Origin: an uncultured Candidatus Peribacteria bacterium | GTDB taxonomy: Bacteria; Patescibacteriota; Gracilibacteria; UBA1369; UBA12473 | Length of the DNA stretch: 64,000 nucleotides | Direction: 5' to 3' | Assembly: GCA_964473745.1 (NCBI GenBank) | Contig: CAYYQE010000008.1 | Span: forward strand, 73 to 64,072 | Part shown: positions 26,926-60,322 of the stretch, one piece after another | Layout: each line of letters opens with the position of its first letter | Position numbering within the stretch: the stretch's first letter is position 1 | Position numbers and translations under genes: made by a program | The notes under the pieces: model-generated | Seen by the model: only the letters and a program-made list of their open reading frames with translations | The model's database searches: none | Told to the model about the DNA's origin: nothing

Positions 26926-28530
26926 CTACGGCGCAATCCTATAAATCTCAAATGTAAAACTATCACTTGCATTTCCGTCGGTATCCTCGGAATAAACAAC
27001 ATAAGTATTAGTCCCAACATCATAATTCAAGTGCTGATCCTCGGCGTAATAACTCCATTCTCCACTTCCCGCCACAAATTTAGTTAGTTGAAAATTATTC
27101 ACATAAACATTTACCGCACTCGCACTAACCGTTCCAAGCACCAAAACCGAAGCCGCGCTAGTGGTGTAAGTTCCGCTTAAGGCATCTCCATTCAAGCTGG
27201 TCACCGCTGGAGTTGTAAGAGGTTCATCAGAGACCTCTTCATCCTCAACCACTTCTTCGTCAGCCACGACCTCATCCTCAGTTACTTCTTCTTCCTCCTC
27301 AACATCCAAAAACCCTTCTGGAACCTCAATAATCACCTCCATTTTTTCACTTTCAAAACCGGAGCCGTTTTCTGCCACAATAGTAAACATATTACGTCCT
27401 TCTCTTAAATTACCATAATCAGCCGCAGCGCCATATCGCCAAGATAAATCCCCAGCCTCATAATGCTGCAAAACATAATCAAAACCACTGCCATCCGCAT
27501 TGTAACTAGTCACTGTTACTTGGGCGGTGTTTTCAGAAGTTGTTCCGTACAAAGCATAAGGCAAAGAATCATCCTCGGTTAAGGTATAAGGACTCCCCGC
27601 TGGGATGGTGACTGTCACTACTGGAGCAACTAAGTCCACCACTTCTTCTTCCTCCACAACTTCTTCGGTAATTTCCTCTGTGACCTCTTCAGCGACATCT
27701 TCAATTACCTCTTCAACCAATTCTTCAACAGGTTCTTCCACGGTAATCGTTGCAGTCGTTGTCGCACTCATCCGCAGAGCTTCGTCTTCGCTATCATTCC
27801 AAGTATACCAATGAGTAATTTTCCATTCATCGGAAAGGGCTGCCAAAAGAGAAACTGGCTGCCTGGCCATCATTGTTTCCATATCAGCTGCTGTAATTTC
27901 GATCTCTTGTCCAACCCCCACTTTAATTTGTTCCAATACTACTTCCCGATCTGAATCTTCCTCCAAAATTTCCACTAAAACCTCTCCTTCCAAAACACGC
28001 ACAATCTCTCTGTCAGTTAAACTCACTTCAAAAATCGTCCCATACGAAGTCACTCGTAAATTATCAGTCAAAACCACCATACGCAGGGCATCATCCGAAG
28101 AGTCCTCGACATTCAACCAAATACTACCTGTTCGCAATGATAATTGAATTTCATCTAAATCTTTGATCGTATCAATTTCCGCAACATTTACTTTTGTTTC
28201 CTCATCTAAACGAACGTTTGTTCCATTATAGAATTCCAATGTTCCTCGACTTTCTCGTTCCATAGCCAGCATATCTCCTTCTAAAACCAATTGGTCATCA
28301 TAAGCCTTGGTCCATTCAGTCTGACCCCAGGGCAAAATCTCTGCTCCTCCCTCGGTTAAATCAAAGTTAATTTTGTTCTTAAGATCAGTCTCTCGTTGAT
28401 CCATAAGAGTCCAAACAAATTGAACTATTAAAATCAAAATAATTCCGCCTAAAATAATCAAAAGAAACGGCCATAAAAATTCCATGAAACGTTTCTGACG
28501 GCGAATATGCGGACGACGTCGTCGTGACAT
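26926..28530 (-). CDS. Membrane-anchored FecR-domain-like protein with acidic linkers
   Basis: A 534-aa protein with a basic N-terminus plus TM helix (RRRRPHIRRQKRFMEFLWPFLLIILGG). A FecR-like beta region, E/V-rich acidic repeats and a C-terminal Ig-like region follow. The function is unknown. Confidence 0.55.
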   Translation of the reverse strand: MSRRRRPHIRRQKRFMEFLWPFLLIILGGIILILIVQFVWTLMDQRETDLKNKINFDLTEGGAEILPWGQTEWTKAYDDQLVLEGDMLAMERESRGTLEFYNGTNVRLDEETKVNVAEIDTIKDLDEIQLSLRTGSIWLNVEDSSDDALRMVVLTDNLRVTSYGTIFEVSLTDREIVRVLEGEVLVEILEEDSDREVVLEQIKVGVGQEIEITAADMETMMARQPVSLLAALSDEWKITHWYTWNDSEDEALRMSATTTATITVEEPVEELVEEVIEDVAEEVTEEITEEVVEEEEVVDLVAPVVTVTIPAGSPYTLTEDDSLPYALYGTTSENTAQVTVTSYNADGSGFDYVLQHYEAGDLSWRYGAAADYGNLREGRNMFTIVAENGSGFESEKMEVIIEVPEGFLDVEEEEEVTEDEVVADEEVVEDEEVSDEPLTTPAVTSLNGDALSGTYTTSAASVLVLGTVSASAVNVYVNNFQLTKFVAGSGEWSYYAEDQHLNYDVGTNTYVVYSEDTDGNASDSFTFEIYRIAP

Positions 28531-28724
28531 AATTTAATAAGGTTATAAAGTGGTACGTAAAATAGTGGATTTTTGGGTTTCTGTAAAGGAAAAAGGGGGA
28601 AGGGAGAAAAAAATGATCCGGTGCTTTTTCGTAAACGTCCCGCCGAGAGGCGAGAGGGGTTCTTTTTGGATCATGTATCCAAAAAGGTTCCCTCCAGTTA
28701 AGAAAAAGTGTCCGGATGATTTTT

Positions 28725-30149
28725 TTACAATCCCATCTCTTGCTTAAGAGCATTCACATCCCTTATTAACCGTTGATCTTTACGCATCATTTTCACAATC
28801 TTATCTACCGCGTGCATAACCGTCGTATGGTTTCGCCCAAACTCTTCTCCAATCTGTTCAAAAGAAGCCCGGAGTTCTTTTCGAATCAAATACATACAAA
28901 TTTGGCGCGGAACTAACACTTCTTTTTTACGAACCGAACCAGTTACATCACTTTTTGTTAGTTTAAAATAATCCGCCACAATATCAATTACATCATCTGC
29001 GGTTTTAGCGAGTGATTTATGCTCTCGCCCTTCATCCAAAACAGCAAATTCCCCACCCCGATTCAACTTCTTCATAATCTTAGCCACCGAACGAATTGTT
29101 GGTGTAGACTGCTCCAATTCATATTGCGCCACCGCCTGCATCAACACCCCTTCTAATTCACGAATACTGTGATGCACGTTATAAGCCATAAACTCCAACA
29201 CATCAGCCGGAAGAAGAACTTGATACTCACGACATTTAGCATGCAAAATTGCCAATCGCGTTTCATAATCCGGGAACTGCACATCCACAATCATCCCCAT
29301 TTCAAACCTGCTAATTAAACGATCTTTAATATCACGAAGCTCTTTTGGTGGACGATCCGCACTTAGAATAATTTGTTTATTTGCATCATAAAGCTCATTA
29401 AAAGTATGAAAAAATTCTTCCTGAGTACGTTCCTTATTCGCCAAAAATTGAATATCATCAATTATCAAACAATCCACATTACGATACTTAGTCTTGAATG
29501 ATTTGGCTTTTTGACTACGAATAGCCTCCACAATCTCATTCATAAACTTCTCGGAAGTCATGTAAACAACGATGGCGCGTGGATTGTGTTTTAAAATCGC
29601 ATTACCCGTGGCTTGCAATAAATGCGTTTTCCCGAGCCCCACTCCCCCATATACAAACAAGGGGTTATAAGCTTGCCCCGGCTTTTTCGCGATTGCCATA
29701 CAAGCGGCGTGGGCCAATCTGTTTTCTGGGCCAATCACGTAACTTTCTAAAGTATATTTGGGATTCAAAGTTTTGCTTCGAATTCCATCAGTATTCACTT
29801 TATATTCCTCCTTTCCAGGCATTTTGCGCACTTTTTTGATTGGTTCGGAAACTTTGTTCACATCAATACTTCGCACATCATCCGATTGTCCCAACTTCCC
29901 ATCCACCTCGTATAAAATCTCTTTAATATTAGGATCTACTGATTGCGTCGCCAAAAGTAATTCTTTCTGATATTTATTAGCCGCCCAATCACGAGAAAGA
30001 ACCATTGGGAAACCCACGGTTAGAGTTTCCTTCTCCTTATTTAAAATTGTGGTGTGCTGAAACCACGTTAAAAAATCAGAACGTTTGAGGTTGGGCTCAA
30101 GAGCTTTCAAAACCTCTATCCAAAAATCACGGTGAGTAGTATTAGACAT
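28725..30149 (-). CDS. dnaA: Chromosomal replication initiator DnaA
   Basis: A Walker A motif (GGVGLGKTHL), box VII and a C-terminal DNA-binding domain (ELRASFEQIGEEFGRNHTTVMHA) are present. Confidence 0.95.
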   Translation of the reverse strand: MSNTTHRDFWIEVLKALEPNLKRSDFLTWFQHTTILNKEKETLTVGFPMVLSRDWAANKYQKELLLATQSVDPNIKEILYEVDGKLGQSDDVRSIDVNKVSEPIKKVRKMPGKEEYKVNTDGIRSKTLNPKYTLESYVIGPENRLAHAACMAIAKKPGQAYNPLFVYGGVGLGKTHLLQATGNAILKHNPRAIVVYMTSEKFMNEIVEAIRSQKAKSFKTKYRNVDCLIIDDIQFLANKERTQEEFFHTFNELYDANKQIILSADRPPKELRDIKDRLISRFEMGMIVDVQFPDYETRLAILHAKCREYQVLLPADVLEFMAYNVHHSIRELEGVLMQAVAQYELEQSTPTIRSVAKIMKKLNRGGEFAVLDEGREHKSLAKTADDVIDIVADYFKLTKSDVTGSVRKKEVLVPRQICMYLIRKELRASFEQIGEEFGRNHTTVMHAVDKIVKMMRKDQRLIRDVNALKQEMGL

Positions 30150-30213
30150 AAAGGAGGTCCAAAAATTGGGCTTCTATCATAATCACAGCCCGCCTCATAA
30201 ACAAGAGGATTTC

Positions 30214-31791
30214 TCAAAAGAGTCGTGCAACATCCTGAAAAGTAACCATAAAAATTAAAATTATCAGGAATATAAACCCTAAAGAATGAATCATTCCTTC
30301 GACTTTGGCATCCACTGGTTTGCCGCGAACTGCCTCTACAATAATAAAAGCCATTCGCCCACCATCCAAGGCTGGAAAAGGAAAAATATTAATCACCCCT
30401 AAACTAAGAGAAAGCAAAGCCACAAAACGAATTATGGCCGTAAAACCTTCTTGAACATAAAGTCCGGTCATCTGAGCAATCCCCACTGGCCCAGCTACGC
30501 CCTCAGGCACAGAAGCCGTGATAAACACATCACCAAATAATTTTCCAACCATTACCGCCGTATAAACAGAAATCCGTTCCATCTCCGAAAAAGCCTCTAC
30601 AGGCGCTGCTAGCCACGAATGTTGCACATCTTGAATCTCGATCACCGAAGAAATTAAAAGTCCGTCATAATAAGAAAAAACATCATTCTCGGGACTGTAA
30701 TTAAGACCAAGTAGCACCCCAATCATTCCGCTGTCATTACGCGACATTTCATAATAATAAATCACATCATCCCGTAACACTTTGTATTTTACGATTTCGG
30801 ATTCACTATTCATGGGAATTGCCACGGCTTGTTCGGGAGTTAAAACTTCCTGATCATTTACCTCTAACACCACGTCCCCAGCCTGCAAACCAGCTTCCTC
30901 GGCTGGAGTCCCAGAAAAAACTTGTGAAATTAGGGCCCGATTACTAACCGGCAAATCAACCTCTACCAACATGGTCTGCTCATCCCGATATATCTCGAAA
31001 ACCTGTTCCGAAACCTCAGTTTCACTAAGAGCTGTTTGCAATTCCGAAGCATAAAAAACCTGTTCTCCATTCAAAGTTAAAATCACATCTCCTTCCTGCA
31101 AATCACTTTCGGAAATTGCTCCCACAATAACGCGTGGCATTTCAAAAACATTAAAATTCAAACCCACTATCGTACCATCAACGGAAGGATCAAACTCCTG
31201 TCCATTCAAAGTAAAAGGCTCGCCCGATTCAACAATGCTATAAACATGTGCTAGATCTTTAATTGGCCCGCTGTTTATTGTTTCGATTTGATCACCAGCT
31301 TGAAAACCAAGATTTTCTGCCCAAGACCATTCTTCGACAGAATCCACATAAAGCCCAGAGGCCAGCTCAATTCGCCCTTCCCGGATAAAACTCATAAAAT
31401 CATCGCCATCTACCATAAGTGGCTGCATGCCCACAACAAAACCGACCGTAAGAAGCACCCAGGCCAATAAAAAATTCATCAGCACCCCGGCGCACACCAC
31501 CTTAGTTCGTTGCCATTTAGTTTTGCGCATAAAAGAACGCGGACTTTTTGCTGCTTTTTTGTCACGAGGATCCTCTCCCAGCATCCGCACAAATCCCCCA
31601 AATGGTATCCAATTAATAGAGTAAATAGTTTCACCAATCTTTTTTCCGAAGAGGCGCGGCGGCAATCCAAAGCCAAATTCCTCAACCCTGATGCCGTTCC
31701 GCCGCGCCACAAAAAAGTGGCCAAATTCATGCACCAAAATCAAAAGCGAAAAAATCAGGAGGAACACAATAATAGTCAGGAGTAATTGCAT
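30214..31791 (-). CDS. rseP: Site-2 (RseP-type, M50) zinc metalloprotease with PDZ domains
   Basis: The HEFGHF motif lies in TM1. PDZ repeats are internal, and a C-terminal LDGG-like motif (ALDGGRM) is present. Confidence 0.9.
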   Translation of the reverse strand: MQLLLTIIVFLLIFSLLILVHEFGHFFVARRNGIRVEEFGFGLPPRLFGKKIGETIYSINWIPFGGFVRMLGEDPRDKKAAKSPRSFMRKTKWQRTKVVCAGVLMNFLLAWVLLTVGFVVGMQPLMVDGDDFMSFIREGRIELASGLYVDSVEEWSWAENLGFQAGDQIETINSGPIKDLAHVYSIVESGEPFTLNGQEFDPSVDGTIVGLNFNVFEMPRVIVGAISESDLQEGDVILTLNGEQVFYASELQTALSETEVSEQVFEIYRDEQTMLVEVDLPVSNRALISQVFSGTPAEEAGLQAGDVVLEVNDQEVLTPEQAVAIPMNSESEIVKYKVLRDDVIYYYEMSRNDSGMIGVLLGLNYSPENDVFSYYDGLLISSVIEIQDVQHSWLAAPVEAFSEMERISVYTAVMVGKLFGDVFITASVPEGVAGPVGIAQMTGLYVQEGFTAIIRFVALLSLSLGVINIFPFPALDGGRMAFIIVEAVRGKPVDAKVEGMIHSLGFIFLIILIFMVTFQDVARLF

Positions 31792-31815
31792 GTAATTAGG
31801 TTATTTTGTCTCGTG

Positions 31816-32376
31816 CTAAACAGTCATCACTGCTTCTTCTTTGGCCTTCGCCGCCTCAGCAACTTGTTTATTATAGTCATCAACTTTTTCTTGCAAACGT
31901 TTTTCCGCTGAAATGGCATCATCTTCGGTAATTTGTTTGTCTTGCGCCATTTGCTTGAACTTAGAATGAGCAGTCTGCCGAGCATTCCGAATTGAAATTC
32001 GAGCCTCTTCGGCTAAATGATGCACAATTTTCACAATTTCTTTTCTTCTTTCTTCTGTTAATGGCGGAATATTAATCAAAACTGCAGTGCCATTATTAAC
32101 GGGATTCAACCCCAATCCTGCCGCTTGAATTGCTTTTTCTATTGTACCCAAAATCGATTTATCCCAAGGCTGAATTTGCAAAGTTTTTGGATCGGGAACA
32201 CTAATATTCGCTACGTTTTTAAGAGGTTGCTGTGCCCCGTAAGATTCCACTTGAAGATGTTCCACTAAACTTGGATTTGCTCGGCCCACTTGAAGACGAG
32301 AAAACTCTTGATTCATATGACTAAACGCTTTTTCAAACTCCGAAGCAGCCGCTTGAATAAATGGATCCGTACTCAT
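31816..32376 (-). CDS. frr: Ribosome recycling factor
   Basis: A 186-aa protein with GRANPSLVEHLQVESYG and ISVPDPKTLQIQPWD. Confidence 0.95.
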   Translation of the reverse strand: MSTDPFIQAAASEFEKAFSHMNQEFSRLQVGRANPSLVEHLQVESYGAQQPLKNVANISVPDPKTLQIQPWDKSILGTIEKAIQAAGLGLNPVNNGTAVLINIPPLTEERRKEIVKIVHHLAEEARISIRNARQTAHSKFKQMAQDKQITEDDAISAEKRLQEKVDDYNKQVAEAAKAKEEAVMTV

Positions 32377-32393
32377 TTTAAAAAAGTTAAAGA

Positions 32394-33107
32394 TTAATTA
32401 TGGACTTTCGTCCCAACATTTTTCCCAGCCGCCGCAGCCGCCAGGTTCCCTTTTTTCATTAAATCAAACACCATTACCGGCAAACCACCTTCCCGACACA
32501 AAGTCGAAGCCGTGATATCCATAAAAGCCAATTTTTTCTTAATCACCTCGTCAAAAGTAATGGTTTTAAACCTCTTGGCGCCCTTATGCTTTTCAGGATC
32601 TTTATCGTAAACTCCATCTACTTTGGTGGCTTTGAGCAAAACATCACAGCCTAATTCTAAACCACGGAGCGCCGCGGCCGTATCGGTTGTAAAAAACGGA
32701 CGCCCTGTCCCGCCGGCGCAAATAACTACTCGCCCATGGTTCAAGTGATCTAAGGCTTTTCTTCGAACATATGGCTCGGCAATTTCAGCTACCGGCAAAG
32801 CTGACATTACTCGACATTCCACTCCTAATCTTTCCAGCACCGCCTGCATTACCACCCCATTCATCACAGTGGCCATCATCCCCATAAAATCAGACTCCAC
32901 GCGCGGCACACCTTTCCCTTTATTATCCCGATAACGCCAAATATTACCGCCTCCAATTACCATCACTATCGACATTTTTTTGGAAAGCGCTTTAACTTCT
33001 TTTGCCAATTTTTCTAATTTCACAAAATCAACCGAATCATCGCCTTTCCCACGTAAAACTTCTCCTGAAAACTTAAGCATTATCCGTTTAGTCTTTTTTT
33101 TCGCCAT
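32394..33107 (-). CDS. pyrH: UMP kinase
   Basis: The motifs LKFSGEVL, VIGGGNIWR and GVYDKDP are present. Confidence 0.95.
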   Translation of the reverse strand: MAKKKTKRIMLKFSGEVLRGKGDDSVDFVKLEKLAKEVKALSKKMSIVMVIGGGNIWRYRDNKGKGVPRVESDFMGMMATVMNGVVMQAVLERLGVECRVMSALPVAEIAEPYVRRKALDHLNHGRVVICAGGTGRPFFTTDTAAALRGLELGCDVLLKATKVDGVYDKDPEKHKGAKRFKTITFDEVIKKKLAFMDITASTLCREGGLPVMVFDLMKKGNLAAAAAGKNVGTKVHN

Positions 33108-54868: not shown

Positions 54869-55041
54869 GTTTATTGTGGGGCACTTTTTATGAGCAACCG
54901 CCGCCACAGCATCCTCCTCCGTCCATAATTCATGAGGTTAAAAAATAGGGCGAAAGTAAGATTACCATACAAACTTTGTCCTTTCAATAAACCCCTCCTA
55001 CTCCACTTTGTATCTAGTAGCCAAAATGGTAAGATTAGGAT

Positions 55042-56469
55042 ATGCAAAAGATTATCAAACGAGATGGAAGGGTTGTCCCCTTTGATGTCGAAAAAATAAC
55101 TGAAGCAATTTGGAAAGCCGCCAAAGCTGTTGGTGGCCAGGATCAAAGCATGGCCAAAGAAGCCAGCCAAGAAATAATTACCTCTCTAGAAAAAACTTTT
55201 GAAAAATCTCACTACCCCACCGTTGAACAAATTCAAGATTTAGTTGAAAAAATTCTTATTGAAAAAGGCCACGCCAAAACCGCTAAAGCTTACATTCTCT
55301 ACCGACACAAACGCACCGAAGAACGTCGCTTGCAAGAAAAACTCATTGGCTCCCCCACCAAAATTCCTCTTTCCCTCGAAGGCTTAGAAACTTTTGAAAA
55401 AGAATTCCACGAAACCCCAGAAGATCTTTTCAAAAAAACCGCCCACGCTCTAAGCAAGAACAAAAAAGAAGAAGATCTGTTTTATAATCTTTTGGCGAAT
55501 TTAGAGTTCCTTCCCCACCCCCACATCCTAAAAAACATTAACCCCGAAAATCCGACCTGCCTATTTCATGAATTTATTATTCCAACTGAAGAAAAAACTC
55601 TTTTTGAAAACCTTGAACAAGCCGCTCAACTTATAAAAACTGGAGCCTCGCTTAGCATTAATTTAAACGAAACCAATAAACCCGCTAGTTTACTTAAACT
55701 TTTTCAAAACGCAGCTGAATTAAATGGGCAAAACCAAAAACACCTCGCTCTTATTTCCAAAAATCATCCTGAACTACTTGATGTACTCACTTTAAAACAA
55801 GACGAAAAAAGCCATTTCAAAGTCTTACAAACAGATGAAACGCTTCTTTTCCCCGAAAGCCGACTCCCGGGGAAAATTTATGAGCCAATTGCCCTGGGTT
55901 GGATTAATTTAAAAGCTGTAAAAATCGAAAATCTGACCAAAGTGGCCGATAAAGCCGCTCTTTTTCTAACTCGAATTTTTGAAAAAAGCACTTATCCATC
56001 CGCAATTATTCAAGAAAAAAGCGAATCAAAACAAATTAGTCTAGGCCTAATGGGACTAGCCGAAGTTTTATACAATGAAGGAATTGGATATAACTCTTAT
56101 GGAGCCGGGGTTTTCCTGCAAAACATCCTAGGAAAACTTGAAAAAATCCCGGAAAACTTCACATCTAACCCCCTAATTGCCAATCTTTTTGACACGACCA
56201 ACGGGATTGAACCTTTTAGCAAACAATCCCATTTAGAAAAAATCGCCATTAAACACGGCTTTTATTCCCCTAAGCTGATGACTGCTATCGAAAAAGCTGG
56301 TTCTTTCAAACCTTTTGACAAAGAAATCCCCTCAAATATTCGAGAAATCATCTTCACCAATAAAGATATTGTAAGCAAAGAACCTTGTCCTCTAATCGAA
56401 GTACAGCGCGAACATCGCCCGCTTCAAGAAAAATCATTGCGAAAAGCTAAAAAATGGGTTACAAAGTAA
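55042..56469 (+). CDS. ATP-cone + truncated, apparently catalytically degenerate class II ribonucleotide-reductase-like protein
   Basis: An ATP-cone is present (KIIKRDGRVVPFDVEKITEAIWKA...KAYILYRHKR). RNR-like blocks are present (LGLMGLAEVL, TTNGIEPF). The position of NPCGE-x8-CNLGSINL reads FPESR-x8-IALGWINL. The length is only 475 aa. Confidence 0.6.
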   Translation: MQKIIKRDGRVVPFDVEKITEAIWKAAKAVGGQDQSMAKEASQEIITSLEKTFEKSHYPTVEQIQDLVEKILIEKGHAKTAKAYILYRHKRTEERRLQEKLIGSPTKIPLSLEGLETFEKEFHETPEDLFKKTAHALSKNKKEEDLFYNLLANLEFLPHPHILKNINPENPTCLFHEFIIPTEEKTLFENLEQAAQLIKTGASLSINLNETNKPASLLKLFQNAAELNGQNQKHLALISKNHPELLDVLTLKQDEKSHFKVLQTDETLLFPESRLPGKIYEPIALGWINLKAVKIENLTKVADKAALFLTRIFEKSTYPSAIIQEKSESKQISLGLMGLAEVLYNEGIGYNSYGAGVFLQNILGKLEKIPENFTSNPLIANLFDTTNGIEPFSKQSHLEKIAIKHGFYSPKLMTAIEKAGSFKPFDKEIPSNIREIIFTNKDIVSKEPCPLIEVQREHRPLQEKSLRKAKKWVTK

Positions 56470-56489
56470 ACCCTATTTAACCTATTTTT

Positions 56490-58841
56490 ATGGCTGGAGA
56501 AGCCCTGGCGAAAAACCGCCTTGATGAATTAGAAGGCGACAAAATAAGCAAATTACGCCCTAACCAAGAAATGGCGGAAGAAAACGATCGCAACGATTTT
56601 AACGTTGAAGCCTCGGGTATTCGCCAAGAAATGTTAGAAAAAATGAACCGCGAAAAAGGGGTTATTTCCAAAGATGAAGAATCCGAATGGAAACAAAAAG
56701 TAACCGACAATCAAGAAGATTTAAGTCGTTTACGATCTATTAAAAATGAATTTGAAGAACACTGGCGCCAATCATTTGAATTACGCCAAAAATTTGAAGG
56801 CAAGCTAAGTAGTGCGGGAAAAGAAGGCATGCTGAAACAAGGGGAAGATCAAAAACTAGCCGAAACTTTTACCGAAAGCGGCTTAAAAGCCAAAGAAAAA
56901 GCCCTTCAAGAACTAGAAAAAGAGTTAAAAAATCGCCAACAAGAACTCAAAAAATTCTTAAAATTAGAAAAAGCTGTTCAAGAAAAACGTCGCACATCAC
57001 TCGATAAAGCTGAAAACTACGACGAAAAACTACGAGTCTTAGAATCATCGGAAAGTGAAAATAAAAACTTCCAAAAATACCGCCAAATATTCAACCAACA
57101 CAAAGCTAAACTATCCAAAAAAACAACCACGGAATATTTAGAATGGTTCTTAACCCTATCTGAAAACGAACAGAATTCCGCTCTAAACAAAGTTGAAAAA
57201 GATGACATCCAGCCTCGGATTGAATTATTTGATGTTCACCAAGATCTTCCCAGAGAATACCAAGATGGAAACTTCAAAGAATGGGGTTTAACCAGGCGTG
57301 AACAATTCTTAGGATCCGTCGAAAAAAAGATCGAACGAGAATATCGCAAATTACTGCGCCAGGATGCGAGCGGTGTTTTTTGCAAAGAATCTCTTCGATT
57401 CTGTGAACGCAATTTCCAAAGCACTGAAAATAATATGGGCAAACGTTTCAAACACAAAATCACGTTTTTAAAAGCACTCCCCGGCCAAATCAAAGCCGAA
57501 AAAGAATTATGGAACCAATTTGAAAAATTCCCCTCTGAAATCCAAGATATTCTCGAAAAAGAATTCAGTGAATCTGACTTTGAAGCCAAGAAAAAAATTC
57601 TCACTGGGAAAGCTACCAAAACAGCTGACCAGTACGGGAAGTTATTAAACCAACTCAACAACAAAATGGATCCGCACATTGCCGAAGCTATTCGAGGCAA
57701 TTTTGAAAAAGCTCCTTCATTAGAAGAAAAAGCCAAAATTATTAAACAAGGAAATGACTTCCAAAAATCCAAAAATCGCTATTTTGCTAAGTGGAAAAAG
57801 AACGAGGCCGCTTTCCGATCAGATATTGGAGTTTATGAAAAATGGTATGGCGAAAGTATAAATTCATTGGAAGCCGCCAAAAAAGCAGAATCCGATTTAA
57901 ACAACATGATTGATTCCCGCCAAAAAGTTCACAAAGCCGTTGAAAAACTACCGTCCCATTTAAAAAACCGCATGAATGCTAATCAATCACTAGGCGAACG
58001 AGAAAAAGACCTCCACAAACTAGAAGAAATAGCTCGCAACTACACTTCAACAATCCCTTTTCTCCTGCAAAATGCCGAAAAAGCCGAACAAGCTGAAGAT
58101 TTAGACCAAGCGCTTAATTTTTATATGCAGGCCCTAAAATTGGACCCAGAAAGTCCAGATCTAAAAACATTAGTAGCCCATTTGCGCCAAAAGGGGGCCT
58201 CCCCTTCATTAACGCCGGCCAATGCCACGGACGAACAGCAAAACAAAAAACTACTCGCCGAAGTCGATGGAATGAGTGATATCACCCAAGACGCCGAGGA
58301 TTTAGCACGCAAACAAATTCTCTTTAATCTTTCCAAAAAACATCACGAACAAAGTGGAGCTAGTGGCAGCACAACCCAAGCTCGGGCAAAAAAATCGATT
58401 CGCAATTTAGATAAAAAAGATCAAAGCACGGCCGAAACAATTATTGAACAACATGGCGACAGCCACACCGTGGACGAAACTGGCACCATCCGCAAAAAGA
58501 AAAAAATAAAAATGCGCGGGGCCCAAGTCCGTGCCACCGAAGAGCAACTCGGCCAATTCTTTGGCGAAAAGCAACACAAGGGCGAAGTTACCAAAAGCGG
58601 CCTAGCAGAAGTAGCTTTCCAAGACGATAGCGGCCGCGAAGTTGAACTTTCTACCGCTGAAAAAGAATTAACCGCGCAAACCGAGCGCCTCGCCCAGCAA
58701 CGCGAAAAACGATTCCTTAAACTAGTACAAAACGATGCTGGCTTAAACGCCGACCAATTAAAATCTGTGCGCGAAGCTTACACCAGGTCTCACGACGAAG
58801 ATGAACGTGTTGAAGACGAAATTGAACGCCTAGCCGCCTAA
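56490..58841 (+). CDS. Hypothetical 783-aa K/E-rich coiled-coil protein with one TPR-like motif
   Basis: A long charged helical sequence. The TPR-like stretch is AEDLDQALNFYMQALKLDPESPD. Confidence 0.5.
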   Translation: MAGEALAKNRLDELEGDKISKLRPNQEMAEENDRNDFNVEASGIRQEMLEKMNREKGVISKDEESEWKQKVTDNQEDLSRLRSIKNEFEEHWRQSFELRQKFEGKLSSAGKEGMLKQGEDQKLAETFTESGLKAKEKALQELEKELKNRQQELKKFLKLEKAVQEKRRTSLDKAENYDEKLRVLESSESENKNFQKYRQIFNQHKAKLSKKTTTEYLEWFLTLSENEQNSALNKVEKDDIQPRIELFDVHQDLPREYQDGNFKEWGLTRREQFLGSVEKKIEREYRKLLRQDASGVFCKESLRFCERNFQSTENNMGKRFKHKITFLKALPGQIKAEKELWNQFEKFPSEIQDILEKEFSESDFEAKKKILTGKATKTADQYGKLLNQLNNKMDPHIAEAIRGNFEKAPSLEEKAKIIKQGNDFQKSKNRYFAKWKKNEAAFRSDIGVYEKWYGESINSLEAAKKAESDLNNMIDSRQKVHKAVEKLPSHLKNRMNANQSLGEREKDLHKLEEIARNYTSTIPFLLQNAEKAEQAEDLDQALNFYMQALKLDPESPDLKTLVAHLRQKGASPSLTPANATDEQQNKKLLAEVDGMSDITQDAEDLARKQILFNLSKKHHEQSGASGSTTQARAKKSIRNLDKKDQSTAETIIEQHGDSHTVDETGTIRKKKKIKMRGAQVRATEEQLGQFFGEKQHKGEVTKSGLAEVAFQDDSGREVELSTAEKELTAQTERLAQQREKRFLKLVQNDAGLNADQLKSVREAYTRSHDEDERVEDEIERLAA

Positions 58842-58854
58842 ATAACCTCCTAAA

Positions 58855-59370
58855 ATGATTCATTGCTACACTGGCGACGGAAAAGGAAAAACTTCAGCCG
58901 CACTCGGAGTGGCCTTTCGGGCCGCCGGCGCTGGTTGGAATACCTGCGTTATCCAATTTATAAAAGGAACCTGGGCCTCCGGAGAAGTTGAGGCGGCAAA
59001 ACAATTTTCTTTTATCGATATTATCCCGGCTGGAAAAGGTTTTTACAAAATTCTAAATGACAAGCTTACAGCCGAAGAACACCAACAGGCGGCTCAAGAA
59101 GCCATTACCACCATTACCGAACGAATGTTAAGCGGGAAATATTCATTAATTGTGCTAGATGAAGTAAATGTGGCCGTTCACCTAAAACTAGTTAAGCCAG
59201 AAAGCATCATTGAAATTCTAAAAAAAGCACCAAAAGGTATTCATTTTGCCCTTACCGGACGAAATGCTCCTCAGGAATTTATTGAAATCGCTGACCTTGT
59301 AACAGAAATGAAAGAGGTCAAACATCCCTTTCACGAAGGGCAAACCGCCAAAAAAGGATTGGATTTCTAG
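58855..59370 (+). CDS. cobO: Cob(I)alamin/cob(I)yrinic acid a,c-diamide adenosyltransferase (BtuR/CobO type)
   Basis: A 171-aa protein with YTGDGKGKTSAALGVAFRAAGAGWNTCVIQFIKG and LDEVN. Confidence 0.8.
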   Translation: MIHCYTGDGKGKTSAALGVAFRAAGAGWNTCVIQFIKGTWASGEVEAAKQFSFIDIIPAGKGFYKILNDKLTAEEHQQAAQEAITTITERMLSGKYSLIVLDEVNVAVHLKLVKPESIIEILKKAPKGIHFALTGRNAPQEFIEIADLVTEMKEVKHPFHEGQTAKKGLDF

Positions 59371-59383
59371 AACATCCGCTATA

Positions 59384-60322
59384 ATGAGCGGGAATAATTT
59401 AAAAAACCCTCTCATGAATGAAAATGTTTACGATTTAATTATTATTGGTAGCGGGATGTCTGGAATGGCGGCTGCTATTTACGCTGGTCGATTTGAAATG
59501 AAAACACTGGTTATTGGCGAACTCCCGGGAGGCACCATTACTCTTACTCATTTAGTTGAAAATTATCCTGGCTATAAACGATTAAGCGGGCTGGAACTAG
59601 CTGGTCATTTACAAGAACACGTTGCTGATATTGGCGTTGAAACCAAACAAGGCAAAATCGAAAAAATCGAACGCGCCGGAGCAGATGGCTTGTTCACTAT
59701 TACAGCTAGTAACGGCGATACTTATCAAACCAAAACTATCTTACTGGCCACCGGTACTGAACACCGCAAATTAGGCGCTCCCGGCGAAGAAGAATTCACT
59801 AATAAAGGTGTTTCTTACTGTGCCACTTGTGATGGGCCATTTTTCCGCGACAAAGTAGTGGCCATTGTCGGAGGCAGTGATTCCGCAGTCAAAGAATCAC
59901 TTTTACTCGCCAAGTATGCGGCGCAAGTCTATATCGTCTACCGCAAAGAAGAAGTTCGGGCTGAACCCATCAATAAAAAAAGAATGGAAGCCACGGAAAA
60001 CATCAAAGTGATTAACAACACCAATATTACCGAAATCCTTGGTGGCCCTACTGTTAACAAAATCAAATTCGACACTGGCAAAGAATTAGAGTGCGAAGGC
60101 GTGTTTATTGAAATTGGGCGCACACCGCGGACTGATTTGGCCGTACAAATTGGAGCTGATCTGAACAAAAAAAGCGAGGTAATTATTAACAAAGCCTCGG
60201 AAACCAACATCCCTGGTTTTTATTCTGCTGGGGACTGCACTGACACCGATTGGAAACAAGCAATAGTTGGCGTGGCCCAAGGTTGTATGGCTGCCTACTC
60301 TGCTTATCAGTATGTAGAATAG
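59384..60322 (+). CDS. trxB: Thioredoxin-disulfide reductase
   Basis: The motifs DLIIIGSGMSGMAAAIYA (FAD), CATCDG (redox-active disulfide) and GGSDSA (NADPH) are present. The likely start is MNENVYD at 59414. Confidence 0.9.
   Translation: MSGNNLKNPLMNENVYDLIIIGSGMSGMAAAIYAGRFEMKTLVIGELPGGTITLTHLVENYPGYKRLSGLELAGHLQEHVADIGVETKQGKIEKIERAGADGLFTITASNGDTYQTKTILLATGTEHRKLGAPGEEEFTNKGVSYCATCDGPFFRDKVVAIVGGSDSAVKESLLLAKYAAQVYIVYRKEEVRAEPINKKRMEATENIKVINNTNITEILGGPTVNKIKFDTGKELECEGVFIEIGRTPRTDLAVQIGADLNKKSEVIINKASETNIPGFYSAGDCTDTDWKQAIVGVAQGCMAAYSAYQYVE

Follow-up and report, generated by a model that had tools for sequence, protein, structure and literature searches.

The question raised by the locus described here is why a bacterium should keep the gene of a ribonucleotide reductase (RNR) from which the residues of catalysis have disappeared. 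The gene, psi-nrdJ, lies at 55042..56469 on the plus strand of a 64,000-nucleotide stretch of contig CAYYQE010000008.1 from an uncultured Candidatus Peribacteria bacterium (assembly GCA_964473745.1); this whole stretch is called the window below. Taking the open reading frame (ORF), Pfam and NCBIfam matches, orthologues, the ratio of nonsynonymous to synonymous substitution rates (dN/dS) and an AlphaFold2 (AF2) model together, the product was characterized as a 475-residue non-catalytic derivative of an ATP-cone class II RNR. The preferred reading, to which a probability of about two thirds (0.65) is assigned, is that psi-NrdJ is a conserved pseudoenzyme that descended in place from an ATP-cone NrdJ and most likely serves as a nucleotide sensor. 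The initial annotation, made from the letters of the window, had likewise proposed a pseudoenzyme that retains nucleotide sensing and is possibly a regulator. The dead but selected protein was borne out, while the regulatory part is kept here in conditional form.

The N-terminal 90 or so residues, described earlier as a good ATP-cone, indeed matched Pfam family PF03477 at residues 3-93 (55048..55320, plus strand; E 3e-26, 92.2 bits versus a cut-off of 25.8), and the match spanned profile positions 2-88 of 88 and is thus full-length. The best PDB sequence match of the cone was the NrdB cone of Leeuwenhoekiella blandensis (5olk; E 2e-15). In the alignment to 5olk, the residues K6-R7-D8-G9, D66, K82, I85/L86, R88 and R95 are kept in invariant columns, and their counterparts in this two-dATP cone belong to the intra-cone salt bridge, the cone-cone interface and the gamma-phosphate contact. 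Together with the low dN/dS values given below, this shows at the sequence level that the ATP-cone of psi-NrdJ is apparently intact. ATP-cones are ATP/dATP-dependent oligomerisation switches in RNR alpha chains, in NrdB and in NrdR (PMC5794259, PMC9110341, PMC11226230). About 11% of the class II RNRs have ATP-cones, and their role there has been called unclear (PMC9669993).

The remainder of the protein belongs to the RNR-alpha superfamily, as was revealed by a match to Ribonuc_red_lgC (PF02867), by an HHalign probability of 100 and by Foldseek E values of 1e-13 to 3e-16. The PF02867 match is confined to residues 288-363 (29.3 bits versus a gathering score of 23.9), and the sole PDB sequence match of the body is to residues 347-421 of Thermotoga maritima NrdJ (1xje), to which the beta-G block LGLMG could be aligned (residues 334-338, 56041..56055, plus strand; also covered by Pfam). 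Ribonuc_red_lgN (PF00317) stayed below threshold, with a sub-threshold match at residues 119-158. This match, the alignment and the AF2 model delimit a shortened N-terminal all-alpha RNR domain at residues ~104-165 (55351..55536, plus strand), which contains FLPHPHILKN and aligns to full-length NrdJ with deletions of 9 and 11 amino acids. NCBIfam models of NrdJ, NrdA and NrdD match mainly via the cone, and all scores are far under the equivalog cut-offs (TIGR02504 NrdJ_Z 49.8 versus 399.95, NF005010 116 versus 1125). The psi proteins are annotated as 'hypothetical protein', 'ribonucleotide reductase alpha subunit' or 'ATP cone domain-containing protein', or not at all.

The catalytic positions were mapped with a MAFFT alignment to full-length ATP-cone NrdJs and with an HHalign profile-profile alignment (probability 100, 449 columns). 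Both methods agreed that the finger-loop motif NPCGE, which is found as NPC(G/S)E in practically all class I and II RNRs (PMC9669993), has become FPESR at residues 270-274 (55849..55863, plus strand), so that the Asn is replaced by F270, the thiyl-radical Cys by E272 and the Glu by R274. They also agreed that the next block, C-N-LGS-INL on strand beta-F, reads I283-A284-LGW-INL (IALGWINL, residues 283-290, 55888..55911, plus strand) at the same spacing as in full-length NrdJ, and that the beta-A motif L-S-A-C-F reads L-F-H-E177-F (LFHEF, residues 174-178, 55561..55575, plus strand). The redox-active Cys pair of beta-A and beta-F is therefore absent, with E177 and I283 in its place. The replacement of all three finger-loop residues and of the following block had been read by eye in the initial annotation, and this reading is upheld. 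In the psi-NrdJ orthologues the thiyl-Cys position is occupied by E or K; no column of conserved Cys was found among them, and no N-x-C-x-E motif anywhere in psi-NrdJ.

Further losses surround these sites. In the segment with helices alpha-A and alpha-B (55591..55725, plus strand; alignment and AF2) the motif GGGTG is replaced by GASLS at residues 201-205, as had been noticed before, and a deletion of 14 amino acids removes specificity loop 1; alpha-B carries the block KPASLLKLFQ (residues 213-222). Loop 2 is shortened as well, and its motif KQGGKRRGAN has given way to G-QNQKHLA. About 53 amino acids before FPESR are deleted, among them strand beta-E and the initial half of the finger loop, and the phosphate-binding APTGT strand (beta-H) is missing. 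Strands beta-I and beta-J are absent together with the Cys-rich zinc ribbon, through which most class II RNRs achieve turnover (PMC5704485). The ten-stranded barrel is thus incomplete, with beta-E, H, I and J lost; the protein ends with KKWVTK and has no C-terminal Cys. The assignment of TTNGIEP (residues 385-391) to an RNR block, which had also been proposed, was recovered in part: HHalign pairs it with the S-G-G-(I/L)-E-P block, but MAFFT places the segment differently.

In total, psi-NrdJ is about 350 amino acids shorter than the full-length ATP-cone NrdJ. Length alone is not decisive, because an RNR alpha chain of 470 amino acids can be active (class O, 7urg); it is the lost residues that are, and judged by them psi-NrdJ is catalytically dead. 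According to the alignments, its shortness stems mostly from internal deletions and is not a simple C-terminal truncation. The conserved C-terminal tail, REHRxLQ...K(A/V)(K/E)KWVT(T/K) in the orthologue alignment (56407..56466, plus strand), is predicted to be disordered (predicted local distance difference test score, pLDDT, below 50). Its best local match lies shortly before the zinc ribbon in three full-length enzymes. In comparison with the NrdJ of genome G052 from family f4 (residues 680-695 of 731), an equally high score was reached by 2-10 of 300 shuffles with four of the five orthologue tails and by 21 of 300 with the tail of orthologue G003; a weaker alternative HHalign placement aligned the tail to PEWHIKMQ. 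The last ~20 residues (REHRPLQ...KKWVTK) are therefore probably, although this is not settled, derived from the part of the ancestral tail that directly precedes the zinc ribbon. The earlier statement that the protein stops early was correct for the absence of beta-I, beta-J and the redox Cys tail, but most of the losses are internal and a part of the ancestral tail has probably been kept.

An AF2 model computed with a 65-sequence alignment yielded a confident reduced RNR-alpha fold (pLDDT 83, predicted template modelling score, pTM, 0.75). Low confidence was limited to residues 267-274, the former finger loop (pLDDT below 50), and to residues 447-475. The model retains the cone, the shortened helical N-terminal domain with helices at 112-165, and about six barrel strands (beta-A to D, F and G). 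Helix 184-199 (alpha-A) is followed by a strand at 203-207 and by helix 214-228 (alpha-B). A Foldseek search with the model returned RNR alpha chains only, with a template modelling score for the query of about 0.55. Helices alpha-A and alpha-B form the dimer interface of dimeric RNRs (PMC9669993), and in the predicted structure psi-NrdJ thus retains the dimer-interface helices and has lost the specificity loops.

Whether such a protein is maintained could be judged from its relatives. The psi-NrdJ family, called psi1, was found with close homologues of 460-475 amino acids in all four genomes of genus g1 and in metagenome contigs; in one genome the gene is broken by contig ends. Six orthologues of 464-475 amino acids with 61-73% identity share the deletion boundaries, the stop and the tail, and short forms are thus conserved among relatives. 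The dN/dS values were determined with the Nei-Gojobori method for ten orthologue pairs with dS of 0.8-2.5 and were 0.09-0.19 over the whole length, 0.07-0.18 for the cone, 0.10-0.19 for the body alone, 0.12-0.20 for residues 96-270 and 0.10-0.19 for residues 271-475. The least saturated pair (dS 0.77) gave an omega of 0.107. For the neighbouring genes, values of 0.12-0.20 (LTD), 0.12-0.16 (helical protein), 0.06-0.07 (BtuR) and 0.06-0.08 (TrxB) were obtained. These substitution ratios show that purifying selection acts on cone and body alike, and an unconstrained frame of 1.4 kb would not be expected to stay open at such divergence. In a maximum likelihood tree the psi1 stem comprises at least 2 substitutions per site and the crown 0.1-0.36, and this long stem and short crown would fit a burst of change followed by renewed constraint. 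A split or frameshifted gene was considered and rejected, since the ORF 20 nt downstream has no relation to RNR, the orthologues stop at the same position, and no other barrel fragment is present in the genome.

The origin of the gene was revealed by its position. The genome (G000; 1.30 Mb, 35 contigs, 96% complete) was compared with its order in the Peregrinibacteria, represented by 61 genomes, 9 of which form its family; the closest full-length homologues have source names that fit this placement. Across the order the genes are arranged as RNase Y (minus strand), LTD, a variable slot, a helical protein of ~650-800 amino acids, BtuR/CobO and TrxB. In family f4 the slot is occupied by a full-length ATP-cone NrdJ of 731-757 amino acids with all motifs intact, and in genus g1 (G000, G002 and metagenome contigs) by psi-NrdJ. 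In the sister genera g3 and g4 it is empty, with gaps of 32 nt and 281 nt, and tblastn detected no psi-nrdJ remnants there with an E value below 0.4. This synteny shows that psi-NrdJ descended in place from the ATP-cone NrdJ of the order. The claim rests on synteny because an attempt to place psi1 inside the NrdJ clade of the order by tree failed; the long stem pulls psi1 to the midpoint root.

Downstream of psi-nrdJ, the window contains on the plus strand the genes for a 783-residue all-helical K/E-rich protein (56490..58841; AF2 and synteny), for BtuR/CobO, the ATP:corrinoid adenosyltransferase that makes the adenosylcobalamin (AdoCbl) cofactor of NrdJ (58855..59370; PF02572, E 1.9e-58, and synteny), and for TrxB, a thioredoxin-reductase-like flavoprotein of the RNR reductant system (59384..60322; Pyr_redox_2 and Pyr_redox_3 matches and synteny). 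The intergenic gaps are 20, 13 and 13 nt. A promoter and terminator scan gave one useful site, a terminator-like hairpin behind the upstream LTD gene; within 55042-60322 it called a single plus-strand hairpin, which lies inside psi-nrdJ at 55941 and is probably due to chance. It is thus probable that psi-nrdJ is co-transcribed with the next three genes. Overall, the scan yielded site numbers no higher than in shuffled sequence, and a search for riboswitches or RNA families in the upstream intergenic region yielded nothing at the gathering score. An extended -10-like site, TGgTAAGAT at 55027..55035 on the plus strand, was not called by the consensus promoter scan and was read directly, 6 nt before the ATG of psi-nrdJ. 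It is part of TGGTAAGAT at 55027-55041, which is devoid of a Shine-Dalgarno sequence and is conserved in five genomes. The -10-like site, the missing Shine-Dalgarno sequence and the conservation in five genomes suggest that the psi-nrdJ mRNA may be leaderless.

Between LTD and psi-nrdJ a tiny antisense ORF for a Gly/Cys peptide was observed (54888-54926, minus strand), which encodes MDGGGCCGGGCS here, MDGGCGGGCNC in G002, MDGGCGGGGCCS in G003 and MLGGGCGGGCCS in two metagenome contigs. The form MMTGGKGGCGC* is present in G006, which does not have psi-nrdJ. The peptide is kept at the peptide level despite codon changes and is unique in the G000 genome. It could be the product of a micropeptide gene, or the ORF could reflect a conserved C-rich RNA element on the plus strand.

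The gene for a working reductase lies at another place in the genome, as a search for a second, intact RNR revealed. All nine genomes of the family contain a long NrdJ with a PF08471 N-terminal domain, and the intein-free orthologues of the sister genera measure ~1210-1221 amino acids. In G000 it is encoded on contig C10 (~28250-32860, minus strand) and measures 1483-1537 amino acids (L001, L033) owing to a LAGLIDADG-type intein, whose insertion point coincides with the ACF cysteine of the active site. NPCSE, CNLAS, a TSCPD (IscU-like) domain and a Cys-rich C-terminus are all present; the long NrdJ is complete and is the only other PF02867 match in the genome, and NrdD is absent from G000. The long NrdJ has neither an ATP-cone nor any other overall-activity site; apart from psi-NrdJ, a cone is found in G000 only in a canonical NrdR (C1:9475-9732). 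A pair of NrdR-box-like sites with 32-bp spacing was found upstream of long nrdJ, and one further pair elsewhere in the genome.

Across the 61 genomes the long and the ATP-cone type of NrdJ are nearly mutually exclusive. The exceptions are genus g1 with the long NrdJ and psi1, G009 with the long NrdJ and a 335-residue remnant, and G051 with both NrdJs. The ATP-cone NrdJ of G051 (L037, G051:C42 6537-8717, minus strand; 726 amino acids) has intact active-site motifs, is devoid of the Cys-rich zinc-ribbon tail and ends with EEVIPPPVMIAQIE, the same tail motif as in the second family described next. By its sequence it looks like an intermediate stage of inactivation.

The remnant of G009 belongs to a second dead family, psi2, which occurs in another family of the order and consists of ATP-cone NrdJ derivatives of 323-359 amino acids with 64-77% identity. 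Distant members have 37-39% identity, and one of them carries the NCBI name 'ATP cone domain-containing protein [Candidatus Gracilibacteria bacterium]'. The psi2 proteins have lost the N-terminal helical domain, so that strands beta-A through beta-E follow the cone without a break, but they retain loop 1. Their finger loop has the sequence N-L-P-F-G-D, with Phe instead of the thiyl Cys, and the proteins end after this relic with QEVxLPPI(E/Q)TLA, a motif that is also present in the tails of full-length enzymes and in the G051 protein. For the pair G009 and P0272 a dN/dS of 0.13 was obtained (cone 0.07, body 0.14), which indicates purifying selection, and in G009 psi2 co-occurs with the long NrdJ. 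In three loci a helical protein of 700-810 amino acids follows within 4-7 nt, and BtuR and TrxB are not adjacent. Because the deletions differ and BLAST detected no similarity between psi2 and psi1 outside the cone, psi2 probably arose independently of psi1. Both families have in common the ATP-cone, the first half-barrel including helices alpha-A and alpha-B, probably a remainder of the ancestral tail, and the linkage to the helical protein.

From these observations the following course of events can be proposed. The family would have acquired the long cone-less NrdJ, which took over the synthesis of deoxyribonucleoside triphosphates (dNTPs), and the old ATP-cone nrdJ would then have shed its catalytic residues, loops 1 and 2, four barrel strands and the Cys-rich tail. 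The remaining protein would bind ATP or dATP at its cone. By analogy with cone-bearing RNRs, a dimer held by alpha-A and alpha-B could shift its oligomeric state through its two cones with the dATP/ATP ratio and pass this state on to a partner. The preferred candidates for the partner are the helical protein, which is probably co-transcribed, and/or the long NrdJ without a cone; the latter might in this way regain dATP feedback in trans. A role of psi-NrdJ with the helical protein unrelated to dNTPs would rank second, and an interplay with NrdR cones third.

Several observations weigh against a nucleotide sensor. The single class II ATP-cone enzyme studied showed no activity regulation (PMC9669993). 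The sister genera have lost psi-nrdJ and yet retain the helical protein, BtuR and TrxB, and since they live without the gene its function must be dispensable. Psi1 is restricted to one genus and to one 50%-identity cluster among 1.84 billion representatives; in this set the search for wider relatives yielded its own cluster only, followed by ordinary NrdJs. No NrdR box was found upstream of psi-nrdJ, which is thus not obviously co-regulated with RNR. In addition, dS is saturated in most psi-nrdJ pairs, and the confidence of the AF2 model is partly inherited from the full-length homologues in the alignment.

The alternative that survives best concerns the helical neighbour. In this explanation psi-NrdJ is an adaptor or subunit of the ~780-residue helical protein, its role has nothing to do with the supply of dNTPs, and the ATP-cone is only an input for energy charge or a structural module. 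The gene of the helical protein was located immediately 3' of nrdJ or psi-nrdJ in every locus examined. It follows full-length nrdJ, psi1 or psi2 in families f1, f2, f4 and f10 and on a contig whose psi2 protein carries the Gracilibacteria label. A distance of only 4-20 nt separates the two genes in the psi1 and psi2 loci and in G051, and the arrangement extends to loci in which BtuR and TrxB are not neighbours. The proteins evolve fast, are K/E-rich and measure 650-810 amino acids across the order (L026-L032, L036-L040). A homology chain could be built in that phmmer directly links those of f1 (one member, E 1e-7 to 2e-8), f2 and f10, and those of f4 and the one beside the Gracilibacteria-labelled psi2 join only by iterated jackhmmer in a 12-sequence database. 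As this database is tiny and compositionally biased, homology across the families is likely, but not proven, and the jackhmmer links count for less in favour of an adaptor. For the 783-residue protein itself AF2 predicted an all-helical structure (pLDDT 81, pTM 0.40), and it has no recognisable fold or domain: no PDB fold match with an E value below 0.5 and no Pfam family at cut-off were found, only two sub-threshold TPR matches. It also persists without psi-NrdJ in the sister genera, and the adjacency may be nothing but inherited gene order. The helical protein is a candidate RNR-associated protein, and the adaptor explanation is regarded as a tentative one, clearly less probable than a nucleotide sensor.

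A decaying relic, that is, a pseudogene that is still open by chance and has no function of its own, is very unlikely. Catalysis has been lost, ~350 amino acids have been deleted, the sister genera have removed the gene and a redundant intact NrdJ is present, all of which would be expected of a relic. However, the six orthologues have kept frame, boundaries and stop at the divergence and the low dN/dS values given above, and psi-NrdJ evolves no faster than the LTD and helical-protein genes. Moreover, these 1.3-Mb genomes delete unused DNA cleanly, as exemplified by the 32-nt gap in G005, and psi2 shows the same pattern. That psi-NrdJ is still a reductase, either as half of a split enzyme like Pseudomonas NrdJa/NrdJb or with a non-canonical chemistry, has next to no probability: active alpha chains can be as short as that of class O and the genes for the AdoCbl adenosyltransferase and the thioredoxin reductase remain in the operon, but a conserved Cys, the finger-loop Asn, Cys and Glu, the redox Cys pair and four barrel strands are absent, PF02867 otherwise matches only the long NrdJ, which is complete, the ORF further downstream bears no relation to RNR, and the long NrdJ equally needs BtuR and TrxB, which persist in genera without psi-nrdJ.

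The two families have a wider meaning. At least twice the cone has been kept under strong selection and the catalytic half has been removed, which speaks for a role of the cone other than the tuning of its own barrel. It is tempting to speculate that ATP-cone-bearing dead RNRs are a recurrent undescribed class of prokaryotic nucleotide-sensing pseudoenzymes, and that psi-NrdJ and psi2 represent a detachable 'activity site'; this extension is more doubtful than the adaptor explanation. The dimer with its two cones would oligomerise with dATP and, together with the tail and the helical partner, subject a cone-less NrdJ of horizontal origin to dATP feedback in trans. If this were true, an ATP-cone from a class II enzyme would for the first time have a clear function. 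In the literature searched, no description of a bacterial RNR pseudoenzyme was found. A single order offers an unusually complete evolutionary series from the intact enzyme via the presence of both enzymes with the tail lost (G051) and the dead but selected forms (psi1, psi2) to the clean deletion. In addition, psi-NrdJ is a small, soluble-looking and catalysis-free protein for the measurement of nucleotide binding and oligomerisation.

Two further groups of cone proteins were observed. Proteins of ~435-463 amino acids combine an ATP-cone with a phosphoribulokinase/uridine-kinase domain (PF00485; P0317, P0326, P0340-P0342, P0345 and others); several are named uridine kinase by their sources, one protein of the group is assigned to Patescibacteria, and they would represent another use of the cone outside RNR and NrdR. 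Proteins of 185-280 amino acids have only the cone as a Pfam domain, which is 67-75% identical to the NrdJ-type cone (P0295, P0296, P0203, P0298, P0300, P0221 and P0210). Some of them are encoded on long contigs of up to 178 kb, and the group could represent NrdJ remnants of still smaller size, or gene fragments.

The closest known system is the full-length ATP-cone NrdJ of Peregrinibacteria and other bacteria of the candidate phyla radiation (fold: T. maritima 1XJE, 3O0O), which occupies the same genomic slot and is the direct ancestor. The similarity amounts to 36-39% identity over aligned columns, with the HHalign and Foldseek scores given above. In contrast to the ancestor, psi-NrdJ is devoid of the thiyl Cys, the redox pair, the Asn and Glu of the finger loop, loops 1 and 2, strands beta-E, H, I and J and the zinc ribbon. 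Pseudomonas aeruginosa NrdJa/NrdJb also has a class II alpha chain that ends early. However, NrdJa keeps all active-site residues and is followed by the nrdJb gene, whereas in psi-NrdJ these residues are gone and no NrdJb-like ORF is present. An identity of psi-NrdJ as a split NrdJa was therefore rejected; its active site is not intact, and no adjacent gene encodes the missing barrel.

Dead RNR subunits are known from other organisms. In yeast, Rnr4 is a dead RNR beta subunit that is kept for a non-catalytic role. The beta-herpesviruses retain inactive RNR large subunits for non-catalytic roles, namely UL45 of human cytomegalovirus and M45 of murine cytomegalovirus (PMC5469499). Unlike psi-NrdJ, these three proteins are viral or eukaryotic class I subunits, they are not so truncated, and their functions in host signalling or cofactor assembly are independent of a cone.

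The likeness to NrdR is that it is non-enzymatic and that its output depends on an ATP/dATP-sensing cone (PMC9110341). In contrast, psi-NrdJ has neither the CxxC...CxxC zinc ribbon nor a DNA-binding domain, and its cone stems from NrdJ and is located on a dead RNR scaffold. The possibility that psi-NrdJ is itself an NrdR, a protein of ~150 amino acids, was rejected, because both the zinc ribbon and any conserved Cys are lacking. A precedent for a cone that regulates RNR from a non-catalytic polypeptide is L. blandensis NrdB (5OLK), in which dATP drives tetramerisation (PMC5794259). Its cone is the best PDB match of that of psi-NrdJ, in which the two-dATP site and the interface residues are kept. 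In L. blandensis, however, the cone is carried by an active radical-generating class I subunit, while in psi-NrdJ it sits on a dead class II alpha chain.

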